IMG/VR virus record: IMGVR_UViG_3300037502_001683
Coordinates: 6,252-70,251 of that record
DNA: 64,000 nucleotides
Reading direction: 5' to 3' (one strand)
Source: a virus
The position numbers were made by a program, and so were the translations under genes. Below the pieces are notes generated by a model. The model searched no databases. It saw only the letters and a program-made list of their open reading frames with translations, and had not been told where the DNA came from. Within the stretch, counting starts at the first letter, position 1. Each line of letters begins with the position of its first letter. Shown piece by piece: positions 6,001-26,337 of the stretch.

Positions 6001-6857
6001 CAGCCTATGCCGAGCAGATGACCGATATCTATCAGGGATCTTCCGATCCTACCCAGATGGCGGTGTTTGCCCAAAGCGGAAAGTCTGGTGCCGAGAATCT
6101 TCTCAAGGCTATGTTTGTTCCGTTTAACTCCTTTGCCGTGCAGCAACGCATGAGGCTTTATTCGGACATGCGGGATGTTTTGAATGGCGAGAAAACAGGG
6201 CGGGGCGGTCTTGCTGGCACTATTGGTGGCCTTATCCTTTTCCATGCTACCAAGCGGTATGTCCTTCCTGTTATTTCTGGATCGGCTATTGGCGTTCTAT
6301 ACAGCCTCATGGGTGTGGATGTTGAGGAACCAGACGAAGATAAACAGAAAGAACAGGCCAGCAAGAACTTCCGTCAGTTCCTTGCCGATGCCAGTTCCAA
6401 CCTTCTTGTTGGCGGAACTCCGCAAGTTATTGAATCCCAAATGATTAAGGCTTTTAACTACGCCGCATATCTCACCGCAATGCAACTTGAGGATGAATCT
6501 GTAATGGGCGATGACGGAGAGCTTATCTCGTTTGATAAATACCAAAAAGAACGCTCACCACTTTACCGCTATCAAACTTATGGCGGGGCAATGAGTCTTG
6601 GCATGTTGGAAATTGGATTTGACCAAGCTAAACAGGTGGCACTGAATACCAAGATGCTGGCTTCACCAGAAGAGATGGAGAATTTTACTCCTGAAGAAAA
6701 ACGGCTTCTTTATTTCTCCGCACTATCCGATTGGTTGTATCTCATGCGCCTAAATGACACCGACTTTGCGCGTATGGTTCAAAAGGCCCGCCGTGACATG
6801 ATCAAAGCCGCCGAAGAGCGCGAGAAAGAACTGGCGCGTATCCGAGCAGGACGCTAG
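3..6857 (+). CDS. Giant polyvalent protein, probably an internal virion/ejection protein; 5' end lies outside the window. Contains ART-like, zincin metallopeptidase and class I SAM-methyltransferase domains and a long helical C-terminus
   Basis: Frame is open from position 3, upstream of the ORF-track start at 174. VFRG...GAFFTD..A.AYA...IDTIVF resembles polyvalent-protein ADP-ribosyltransferases. HEVGH (1965-1979) with a downstream DEFVAQ is a zincin motif. DIGGGRFD...SNVLNVI...AIKPDG (from 2682) is a Rossmann methyltransferase. Pro/Glu-rich linkers separate the domains. Confidence 0.8.
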   Translation, partial: PTVPVTPPVEPTPEGAVAPVEPVVEPAVAESPVVETKAENPVVETEQKSQEQTNTVKVFRGVAEAGNIPDGGAFFTDSEKDASAYAQLAALRKAVDENEQLSEIVGEIMSEEGAESITDLSISTVKNIIEGNKIEVGNISEGTVLRGNINLGNTLNLESFGSEVGNLPETWNEMNELGLVPETWESLDEDVQAELQDKYRNKAFYSLLEGEVNLNEQFNKGIDTIVFTDQNTEGKGTHRTYLTKAAEQFTQEAAPAVTPPAEVAPEVTPTPEAPNLEPLRRVARAEQAPEDVPSLVEAGLVEVYKDQPVITEAGLAALPEAERPRLTPQARKIQIDTGSNEVVAEAISKNLRIGVDQVGPNVRMPAGWTLVEDIYVPPAPQEVAPEAITPTVEPITPEKQVIPEQQEQVAPVVRVEQEQVNQGKPDVAKIINQFTVLERAAVAGKLLEEGYIDGRTADKFVKEATSDKTGGFSMAQIRDAQASADEKFNQQIAAARTSQPVAGEVSPAAVDLAAEDATRSTKERTRPATALRPKTILGKTAREALSYLSSLNLIESRDLDAESGIARWRQDPNIPKPFYAQIQDAAAILSKLPLRILDADKIISNADRGYKGGAKRFGDGDIGIPLTETARVQTATGSWVRRSVPKPLNVATLVHEVGHTLTADAIDKYISSKKPKGDDYLKLLDSALKNKTTPQPIKDLIALYKTTISQLGLEQEYFGKKGLAGGRARDSQRKAYDKKIVNNLTGNPFTWSQYYGLANIDEFVAQTWSSQSFQDLLKQIKAPDQQSLWTKFTKIIRDLFGFPSDSMASAVIDVSMQIAELETPIGARKGVAFSGVTIADRIAGRGEEPAPPTRNIWQAPEQEITSQETSINEKKIPAVFNQVKEWKEGTVNADIGGGRFDNVTDWLRDRGVENLIIDWFNRDRAFNEKNINRVRGGRADTATVSNVLNVIQEPEARDLVISQAADAIKPDGTAYFYIYEGKGDGVGRQTTKGWQENRKTQTYIDEISQHFENVERRNQMIVATGPIKEIGFAEAEPEMPSEGIPTFSEGSPEASTLSNMKASMAKVDAASEAKPNPENKPTYKISEIASVWMDQGGDARQLQDLITENTNLTPANAKRVANAIAKQYDIQQSIASAFIETQTGLSVEALPEGVTLPKEVDPDRPRPVMQRLFDVFMGVRVKPVKITVNEKTALNQQIRLKAAATREAKKAQQETANEVVEIIKAMELRGPVRPKQAQALAKRAAKVIWTSEKSIESFTDYAAKVVENTNYDADLRAARDAQKRAKALSTQKKVALSPQREVLSDISKIAVNRIEDPRMFAEMVNYYLRGFKKAISPDYVVVPDAEIQGYLSSVKDEEIQSQRELDRAVNLRLAEKYGVDPEEVNEVLAAFDVIKEIEASENREAIDNLLTEKAIETRDGLRAYDSIQLRQDQRKVVDAMAKVDPAALDAEERQRFIRIANNVIFNNQTNGAEYFMSVANGQQNARKSAQDSEMIARNKAWVNLIKTFGSTKLEKVTRSWALELQSVSDTFRNAFGKNSMAKIYDLMGMLDLNSSFTQANNTVDQIQEEMAEFHNKLEKDYGAASRNQDGILAEGVVGFLIQRVPKKGEADSIAQRRDLIRQDIANRRASNEGDRVAMADRIEAILNQIDGASTQEILGKLKQTYPANHESLVWYKDTLLPKYKDFLKNFDENFNDQANNYDNPDYLPIAFTSAGPSLAITKEEEQVFYDQVSLTPKQSANTIKRVDYTKIPKDRTTDKPKEISYNLRRNAFNSLSDQINKAYTSGAWQQIASFMKTPESTQVFGGDANKDFFIERLNRLRLSRMRRGAMSRGAFEKAADAIGVISRKLGTGIALGGVYQWIKQPPDQLITAWGSGARGEVLARNIAPSNQKAARNLLNKFSIGRRGDASAGYKYINQMEGHQNRLERYFSESKWEQAKEQAGKIADVWMIGLKKSDFIAASAAWMTYYETELNKKNIQIEDWSKEADLIDGDRDRREAAAYAEQMTDIYQGSSDPTQMAVFAQSGKSGAENLLKAMFVPFNSFAVQQRMRLYSDMRDVLNGEKTGRGGLAGTIGGLILFHATKRYVLPVISGSAIGVLYSLMGVDVEEPDEDKQKEQASKNFRQFLADASSNLLVGGTPQVIESQMIKAFNYAAYLTAMQLEDESVMGDDGELISFDKYQKERSPLYRYQTYGGAMSLGMLEIGFDQAKQVALNTKMLASPEEMENFTPEEKRLLYFSALSDWLYLMRLNDTDFARMVQKARRDMIKAAEEREKELARIRAGR

Positions 6858-25313: not shown

Positions 25314-25976
25314 TCAAACTGCGACTGTGTCATTTGGCGTATTTTTACACGAATTAAAAGATTCTTCAATAATCTTTGACCCCTTGCTCATATTTTCTTC
25401 TGGATAAAGGGGTTGTAAATTAGTCCAATGACAAGCAGCTTTTAGTTGTTCGGGATCAGTAAGATCGAATGAATTAAGTGGACGGATGTGATCAATATGA
25501 AAGCTGTGTTTTTTATTCCAACACATCCCTTCGCGAAATTGACTTTCAATATGCTTGCGAAGAAAATCATAAGAGCATCCTATCAATTCAACGGTTTTAA
25601 GAGATTTTTTGACTCCTTTATTTTTTAGAGCCATACAAATTCTTGTCCTTATTCTTAAAATGGTGGCGTATTGGGGATCTCTAGCTTTTCTTTCTTTTGT
25701 ATATTTTGCCCACCAATCTCTTCTTTTTTGTCTGTTCTCTTCTTTGCTATAGTAAATTTTATTTGTTATTTTTTTCTTTTTAATGCTTTCTGGGCGCTTT
25801 TTGTATTCTTTTGTATGTTCCTGTAGTTTTTGTCTGCGCCTATCAAAACTTTCTCGACTTATCCACTCTTCATATATCTGAGTTGGGTCTTTGGGATTAA
25901 CTCGTTTTTTATGGTATCCCCAAAATATCTTTCCATCAGATTCGCGAACGTCACCCCACTTATGCTCCATTTTCAC
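25314..25976 (-). mobile_element. Free-standing HNH homing endonuclease
   Basis: LIGCS..FLR.HIE.QF..GM.W...HIDHIRP..SFDL...HWTNLQPL...N.SKG; more AT-rich than its flanks. Confidence 0.88.
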
Positions 25977-26337
25977 GGAACAACTCTATAATCGTCTCTT
26001 CTTTTTGACGAGTTTTTTCTTGTTTCGTTTCGATAGTGACATCTTCCGCACGGTCATCTGGAATTGCTCCAGCATAGCGGAGGCAGTCAATGAAGTATTT
26101 GAAAACGAGATTGTCGGGGTCAATAAGTCGCTTCCTTCTTGCCGTAAGGCGGATATGAATGCGTCCTGTATTTTCTTTTTTGCTGCCTGCCTTCGCCAGT
26201 GGTTCATTGCGAATAGAGCGTTTAGGCTTGGGGTTACGGCTGGAACCCTTATTGTTAAGAAAGGCTCGTTGGATTGTATCGATTCGCTCATAGACTCCTT
26301 TGCTTACTTCCACATAGCCTGCTGGGATTTCTTTCAT
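25960..26337 (-). CDS. rusA: RusA-like Holliday junction resolvase, catalytic (C-terminal) half
   Basis: RLIDPDNL.FK.FID.L..AG.IPDD motif; this frame lacks the PSxN N-terminal motif. Confidence 0.8.
   Translation of the reverse strand: MKEIPAGYVEVSKGVYERIDTIQRAFLNNKGSSRNPKPKRSIRNEPLAKAGSKKENTGRIHIRLTARRKRLIDPDNLVFKYFIDCLRYAGAIPDDRAEDVTIETKQEKTRQKEETIIELFRENGA
25986..26291 (-). CDS. Nested same-strand ORF encoding a RusA-like N-terminal half
   Basis: IRVP..TPSLN.L..MNHWRR..AKKK; AAAGGAG upstream of its ATG; in-phase A_AAA_AAG at 26175-26181. Confidence 0.65.
   Translation of the reverse strand: MSESIQSNEPFLTIRVPAVTPSLNALFAMNHWRRQAAKKKIQDAFISALRQEGSDLLTPTISFSNTSLTASAMLEQFQMTVRKMSLSKRNKKKLVKKKRRL

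Follow-up and report, generated by a model that had tools for sequence, protein, structure and literature searches.

Two reading frames on one strand of a viral genome

We analyzed a 64,000-nucleotide (nt) stretch of viral DNA (the window; positions 6,252 to 70,251 of IMG/VR record IMGVR_UViG_3300037502_001683), in which two open reading frames (ORFs), A and B, overlap almost completely (306 of 378 nt) on the minus strand. The pair belongs to a virus record of 70,251 bp that is complete and bears direct terminal repeats, and the same 70-kb record encodes a primase and a large terminase. ORF A (26337-25960, minus strand) encodes 125 amino acids (aa) and carries the motif RKRLIDPDN...K...D...DD. 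ORF B (26291-25986, minus strand; the coordinates include the TAG stop at 25988-25986) encodes 101 aa in the +1 frame relative to A, starting 46 nt downstream of the A start. Because the codons of B begin one base 3' of those of A, passing from B into A means a shift of -1. Frames A and B both remain open for about 100 codons, and the third frame contains 10 stops. A Shine-Dalgarno-like AAAGGAG (26301-26295, minus strand) lies 3 nt before the B ATG, within A codons K13-G14-V15. Further into B the sequence reads GCA AAA AAG, so that an A_AAA_AAG heptamer (26181-26175, minus strand), which encodes B residues K38-K39, is in phase for a -1 slip. An initial annotation of this DNA had described the ORF coordinates, the two open frames, the AAAGGAG, the in-phase heptamer and the -1-frame catalytic motif, and was correct in every positional detail, with all of these features on the minus strand.

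A is a real, full-length gene: of 193 candidates, 185 are homologous at E ≤0.001, and the 120 matches listed have lengths of 123-136 aa, span 94-100% of A and share 53-100% identity with it. The N terminus is conserved upstream of the B start, where P5, G7, E10, G14, V15, Y16 and R18 are invariant, and insertions and deletions in the middle of the protein are multiples of three among homologues.

The resemblance of A to RusA (Escherichia coli prophage DLP12; PF05866; PHROG 34) is limited to the C-terminal part, and lies in the catalytic residues and in the strand-helix-strand-strand order; A is also, like RusA, a small phage-encoded protein located among replication and recombination genes. 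The RusA-like catalytic half (residues 57-120; 26169-25978, minus strand) comprises a strand, the helix with D73-x-D75-N76...K80...D84, the D94-D95 pair and two strands, and contains the RusA motif D-x-D-N-x(2-3)-K...D...DD. PHROG 34, annotated as 'RusA-like', matches A residues 44-110 with an E value of 1.9e-7, and also matches 32 of 56 family members. Using hhalign, A residues 53-122 align to residues 48-120 of E. coli RusA (E 4.5e-4), with RusA D70, D72, N73, K76, D80 and D90-D91 paired with A D73, D75, N76, K80, D84 and D94-D95, respectively. Across 56 family sequences D73, N76, K80, D84, D95 and Q106 never vary, and D75 hardly does. Unlike typical RusA proteins, however, A has no match to the Pfam RusA model: PF05866 gave none for A or B at E ≤10, and none in six frames across the whole 70-kb genome. 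A Foldseek comparison of the A model with the PDB gave no match at E ≤0.001, and a search of PDB sequences with A found no RusA. Against BFVD, the model aligned with RusA-named entries over 61-86 columns at a probability of 0.51-0.99, but with E values of 0.08-0.7.

A also differs from RusA in lacking the first strand and the first helix. The AlphaFold2 (AF2) model of A (predicted local distance difference test, pLDDT, 64) consists of a β-hairpin at residues 8-18, disorder at residues 22-56, where no helix is modeled, and then strand-helix-strand-strand. The N terminus takes different forms between subfamilies: a hairpin, a type with RFPNAS, or almost nothing (loci L056 and L123); the two types of sequence found upstream of B are GYVEV.KGVYER and RFPNAS. 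In one branch (loci L036-L044, proteins P0104-P0119) the motif reads DPCN instead of DPDN, such that the Asp equivalent to RusA D72 is replaced by Cys and the rest of the motif is intact; the sequence suggests that these proteins may have an inactive or altered active site. Four BFVD entries of 78-94 aa, one of them named RusA (A0A516L1H7, A0A516L876, A0A2I7RZ93 and A0A8S5U618), align to the catalytic half of A. RusA genes of half size may occur in other phage groups too, perhaps paired with a second frame that has gone unnoticed.

As for B, an ATG-initiated ORF of 98-109 aa is found in the +1 frame in 54 of the 56 homologous genes first examined. When 1.84 billion representatives were searched with a profile of B, 323 clusters had E ≤1e-3 and 155 had E ≤1e-10; most of the 18 clusters fetched contain a stretch resembling 'DSST.TT', the form that 'RLID.DN' of A takes when read in frame B. 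The conserved core of B (residues 9-50; 26267-26142, minus strand) is composed of a strand, a PSLN loop and an HW..R...KK...F..AL helix. Residues S22, N24, R34, F45 and L49 are invariant, and the N-terminal motif PSLNALFAMNHW.R...KK..Q.AF.SAL persists even where A has a different N terminus. The core is followed by a tail (residues 51-101; 26141-25986, minus strand) that is free of stops, has a frame-B sequence that is not under selection, and ends in a run of Lys and Arg. AF2 places helices at residues 23-28, 31-56 and 62-100 (pLDDT 77). In size and in the order of its elements (strand, P-S-x-N loop, helix) the B core corresponds to the first 47 residues of RusA, with P-S-x-N placed as in the PPSNN of the E. 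coli enzyme. B is best read as a small, conserved strand-loop-helix protein with a basic tail, which likely either completes A or acts as its partner.

The B start codon is conserved. A purine-rich site (GGAG, GGGA or GGGG) is retained upstream of it in the window-like subfamily, and in other subfamilies the ATG is present with no clear Shine-Dalgarno sequence. Several loci (among them L061, L073, L074, L095, L107 and L108) have the B ATG inside the Pro-Asn-Ala codons (CCA AAT GCC) of the 'FPNAS' segment of A, the conservation of which may partly serve the B start codon. At loci L056 and L123/L126, B starts upstream of A, and the open frame of A begins 12-13 codons before PSxN; no Shine-Dalgarno-like site is visible before the A ATG of L056. 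Among distant relatives of B (P0153, P0181, P0191, P0211 and P0221), the tails share a ...SKS...K(V/P)PF C terminus, and the presence of such an end motif in an otherwise unconstrained tail hints, at the sequence level, at a docking peptide.

Conservation of the layout and partitioning of selection

The dual-frame layout was evaluated at 128 loci, obtained from the homologous genes first examined, two further scans that added 63 viral loci, and contigs of metagenome-assembled genomes (MAGs) found through genome searches. Relative to the B motif, the catalytic motif is in the -1 frame at 126 of these loci; the remaining two are a 23-residue fragment and a weak match. The two motifs share a frame at none of the 128 loci, and no relative that reads the B core in one frame with the catalytic motif was found among them. 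The initial annotation had suggested that the dual-frame layout be sought in homologues, and it recurs there as described; a single continuous frame, or a nested ORF that is not conserved, had been named as the outcomes that would speak against its proposal, and neither is seen (0/128 loci in the same frame, B open in 54/56 genes).

Variation at the three codon positions, measured as mean pairwise diversity in 19 representatives of the window subfamily, shows that selection is partitioned along the DNA: it acts on A alone, then on B, on both for about 10 codons, and then on A. In A codons 1-20 (IPAGYVEVSKGVYERID; 26337-26278, minus strand), the A wobble position is the most variable (0.47-0.61), as expected of selection on frame A only. 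Over codons 21-65, the A first position, which is the B wobble position, varies the most and frame B is the one selected; the A wobble falls as low as 0.12-0.17 at codons 36-45, where selection on frame B is strong. From codon 66 to codon 120, the A wobble is again the most variable, in 9 of 11 five-codon blocks, and selection is on frame A. The frame switch is reproduced by two independent and more divergent subfamilies (24 and 20 representatives), in which B-phase periodicity begins 10 codons ahead of the P of PSxN and holds as far as codon +29, with a sharp switch to A phase at +30.

Between the two regimes lies a zone (26172-26143, minus strand; A codons 56-65 and B codons 41-50) in which all three codon positions are constrained. 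In every representative the A wobble base is T at codons 60 and 64, because the invariant F45 and L49 of B require it. Since the strand that opens the catalytic half of A, R-[IV]-x-[IVF]-[RK]-[LIVF], is specified by the same stretch as the end of the B helix, about 10 codons are truly dual-coding. Comparisons of distant pairs show the same partitioning at the protein level: in the N-terminal part, identity is 41% for B versus 36% for A (B higher in 2527 of 3304 pairs), and in the C-terminal part it is 41% for A versus 24% for B (A higher in 3243 of 3304 pairs).

Both frames are also open beyond what is expected by chance. When A was reshuffled synonymously using local codon usage, the chance of a stop-free frame B over the 101 codons at the window locus was 0.010, with 3.6 stops expected; across nine lineages the chance ranged from 0.001 to 0.04, with 2.7-5.1 stops expected. 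In the B tail, 52 stop-free codons follow the helix in 64 of 89 unique members, versus 10.3 expected, and 19 more stop at codon 50. Conversely, frame A is stop-free through the B core in 91 of 91 members, versus 34.6 expected from the B protein sequence. Openness of both frames is not needed by a frameshift model, but is required if two full-length products are translated.

Frameshifting, artefact and a putative two-chain resolvase

The initial annotation had offered programmed -1 frameshifting at the A_AAA_AAG heptamer as one explanation for the layout. Such a shift would join B residues 1-39 to A residues 54-125 in a 111-aa single-chain RusA, either as the enzyme itself or as an extra product in the lineage of the window, and would place the strand-loop-helix before the catalytic half. 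The heptamer is of the classic dnaX type and in phase, it is invariant among the close relatives of the window, and a candidate purine-rich element, AAGG, lies 8 nt upstream. In dnaX, the τ and γ subunits are produced by a programmed -1 frameshift at the identical A_AAA_AAG, in the same phase and with a purine-rich element a few bases upstream. In the A/B family, however, the slip site is not conserved, contrary to what frameshifting would lead one to expect: of 63 unique members, 21 have an in-phase canonical X_XXY_YYZ heptamer in the region of the junction, whereas the other 42 retain the dual-frame layout without one, and at six loci (L046, L056, L059, L062, L067 and L112) the longest A-run at the site is 2-3 bases. 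Nor did folding, with no covariation analysis made, reveal a downstream hairpin of the kind found in dnaX: the 87 nt from the heptamer fold at -13.3 kcal/mol (z -1.11), which is equaled by 30 of 200 shuffles. Selection on the 0 frame continues past the site. The A-run lies at +17/+18 from the P of PSxN, and the constraint on frame B, including the invariant F45 and L49, reaches 11-12 codons beyond it in three subfamilies, such that the switch in coding constraint does not coincide with the slip site. Furthermore, the -1 frame (A) has its own start and its own conserved N terminus, and neither the openness of A upstream of the site nor that of B far downstream would be called for by a shift. 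Since the heptamer is confined to a third of the members and no downstream RNA structure is found, programmed -1 frameshifting is not the mechanism of the family. The A-run encodes nearly invariant lysines of B and is most likely incidental, reflecting the Lys-Lys codons of the B helix. We accordingly consider frameshifting an improbable account of the locus, although the invariance of the heptamer close to the window leaves some room for a minor frameshift product in that lineage. An in-phase A_AAA_AAG between two open frames does not by itself prove programmed frameshifting.

An artefact is far less probable still, and would require either that an assembly indel in the A6 run split a single RusA gene, or that frame B is open by virtue of composition. 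Homopolymer runs are common sites of sequencing error, but the two-frame layout recurs in 126 of 128 contigs, including members that have no A-run, and in three other runs, two of which are RNA libraries (where the sequence is evidence of presence only and not of translation), contigs of relatives cross the A-run without an indel; assembly error is therefore excluded. Composition, in turn, does not account for the own-phase three-nucleotide periodicity of frame B, its conserved start or its avoidance of stops.

The properties of the pair are those looked for in overprinted genes: openness in excess of expectation, periodicity of each frame in its own phase, and a start signal for each frame. 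From the sequence evidence we are confident that the locus would express two overprinted, separately translated genes. This agrees with the other explanation put forward in the initial annotation, two overprinted polypeptides that assemble a split enzyme, in that both frames are conserved, open, under phase-specific selection and provided with start regions of their own; the split-enzyme fold is a further step, which we infer. We propose, with moderate confidence, that the two translated products interact, B binding A as a two-chain resolvase. The stricter form of the proposal, in which the resolvase is an obligate two-chain enzyme of RusA type, with B as first strand and helix and A as the catalytic sheet-helix half, is tentative and falls short of what we would call probable.

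According to this proposal, translation of A would start at its own ATG, coupled to the stop of the upstream gene, and yield a lineage-specific N-terminal piece, a linker dictated by frame B and the C-terminal 60% of a RusA-type Holliday-junction endonuclease. B would be initiated in the +1 frame behind its own AAAGGAG, yielding a 45-residue conserved core (strand, P-S-x-N loop and long amphipathic basic helix) and then a loosely constrained basic tail. B would bind A and supply the first strand and first helix, elements that in RusA pack on the sheet, so that the two chains together may rebuild one RusA fold. Overprinting would guarantee joint inheritance and joint transcription of both parts. 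The proposal draws indirectly on the absence of the first strand and first helix from A, for both of which B is the sole candidate, and on a C-terminal extension domain, described below, that is in frame with A at three loci and with B at five. It also draws on a complex prediction for A with B(1-60), in which the interface score ipSAE (interaction prediction score from aligned errors) was 0.47 (0.46, 0.48 and 0.47 in the individual runs), whereas the highest-scoring of three controls reached 0.00. At least 63% of the contacts are common to the runs, the partner pLDDT is at least 66, and the verdict is 'weak support'. Of 80 solved complexes, 58 attain the mark applied, as do 2 of 110 mismatched pairs, but scores of 0.60 or lower account for only 7 of the 80 solved complexes and for both mismatches that pass.

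The data on two selected frames would also be explained if B had no place in the resolvase fold, A alone being a minimal RusA-like nuclease and B an unrelated small basic protein (DNA-binding, a regulator or an inhibitor) overprinted on the A linker. The basic helices modeled for B would suit nucleic-acid binding, and the BFVD proteins of 78-94 aa that are named RusA or match RusA and align to the C-terminal half of A suggest that a half-size RusA may exist alone. Similarity of B to RusA is, moreover, seen at the level of motifs and not of models. The initial annotation had recognized a RusA N-terminal signature in B, and the motif resemblance holds; yet no Pfam or PHROGs model of RusA matches B or any of 56 family members (0/56), and hhalign gave no match between B and E. 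coli RusA with 94 close homologues, a comparison in which the profile was poor because the search with the E. coli protein had returned only close relatives (at least 69% identity). Foldseek found no fold match for the B model (best E value 1.5), a protein atlas search with B gave no usable match, and no relative of B was detected outside the dual-frame family. Any homology of B to the N-terminal half of RusA is hypothetical. Several further points weigh against a two-chain enzyme or against the strength of the counts given above: AF2 models B alone without the strand that should precede the PSLN loop; the score for the A and B complex is a weak pass; the B tail has A-like periodicity with no B-phase constraint on its sequence; the tail ends early, at codons 6-41, in 6 of 89 members, and part of B may therefore be dispensable; the related sequences are phylogenetically non-independent, so that the counts overstate the number of independent observations; and both products are predicted from the sequence. 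On the other hand, the N-terminal part of A cannot replace a conserved core element, because it differs between subfamilies, the B core resembles the first 47 residues of RusA in order and size, and the complex prediction passed its controls, albeit weakly. Taking these points together, we regard an unrelated B as unlikely, although it is the alternative to a two-chain resolvase that deserves the most weight.

Related systems and genomic surroundings

A typical RusA works as a dimer to cut Holliday junctions, and its single chain of about 120 aa unites an N-terminal strand-helix with the catalytic half, a one-chain arrangement found at none of the 128 loci. The closest parallel for the genetic layout is the Rz/Rz1 spanin of phage λ, where one gene is embedded out of frame in the other and the products form one complex. 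The two systems are alike in using two frames of the same DNA, in their conservation across phages and in the joint complex, which for A and B is proposed. They differ in that the A/B overlap spans nearly all of both genes, with partitioned selection and a short dual-coding zone, and in that the proposed function is that of a nuclease and not of lysis. To our knowledge, tailed phages seldom have long out-of-frame overlaps that are conserved, and gene callers usually fail to find them. In the present case, gene callers take either A or B, and both are left as 'hypothetical'.

Within the family, one overlap recurs in hundreds of natural replicates and selection on it is cleanly partitioned, which makes the family a good model for the origin and persistence of overprinted genes. 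If A and B constitute one resolvase, the catalytic half of a well-studied junction nuclease can work with its structural half in trans. They would then be the first example of a single enzyme fold divided between overprinted frames, an arrangement retained in hundreds of phage lineages, and a natural system in which the genetic code itself forces both parts to be inherited together.

Full-text searching of the literature found no account of this overlapping arrangement. In the parts of PMC10885494 consulted, 'RusA/RuvC' is listed among genes 'known to contain a frameshift', and those parts describe neither a RusA frameshift nor an overlap. Within the range of references cited there [35-42], as far as that list was seen, the sole Holliday-junction entry is a 1991 ruvC paper (Sharples & Lloyd), on which the listing of 'RusA/RuvC' appears to rest.

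Neither A nor B had a match among GenBank phages by blastn or tblastn, also at E ≤10 for A, and no cultured phage with this pair was found. A pattern scan of the genomes of 185,579 species returned two short MAG contigs, labeled Planctomycetales and Verrucomicrobiaceae, and in a further search covering one of these two phyla 3 of 401 genomes matched; the matches are too thin to point to a nameable host.

Pfam searches with the upstream small ORFs, the downstream nuclease and the C-terminal extension domain described below gave no match at E ≤0.01. Directly upstream of A lies an ORF (26477-26334, minus strand) encoding a hydrophobic, Trp-rich protein of 47 aa, the stop codon of which overlaps the A ATG (ATGA); the stop/start overlap suggests that translation of the two may be coupled. 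The next downstream gene (25976-25314, minus strand) overlaps the 3' end of A by 17 nt. It matches PHROG 1035, 'endonuclease VII', with an E value of 1.1e-12 and has an HNH-like motif; by virtue of the PHROG 1035 match, two junction-type nucleases adjoin at this position. Finally, some loci carry a C-terminal domain of about 45 aa (...AELIEAYW...SSWNR.AFDVF...LRQYI...) at the 3' end of the pair, in frame with A in L046, L094 and L108, and in frame with B in L095-L097, L107 and L109. In most loci the domain starts near a Met, and it may be a separate small gene.

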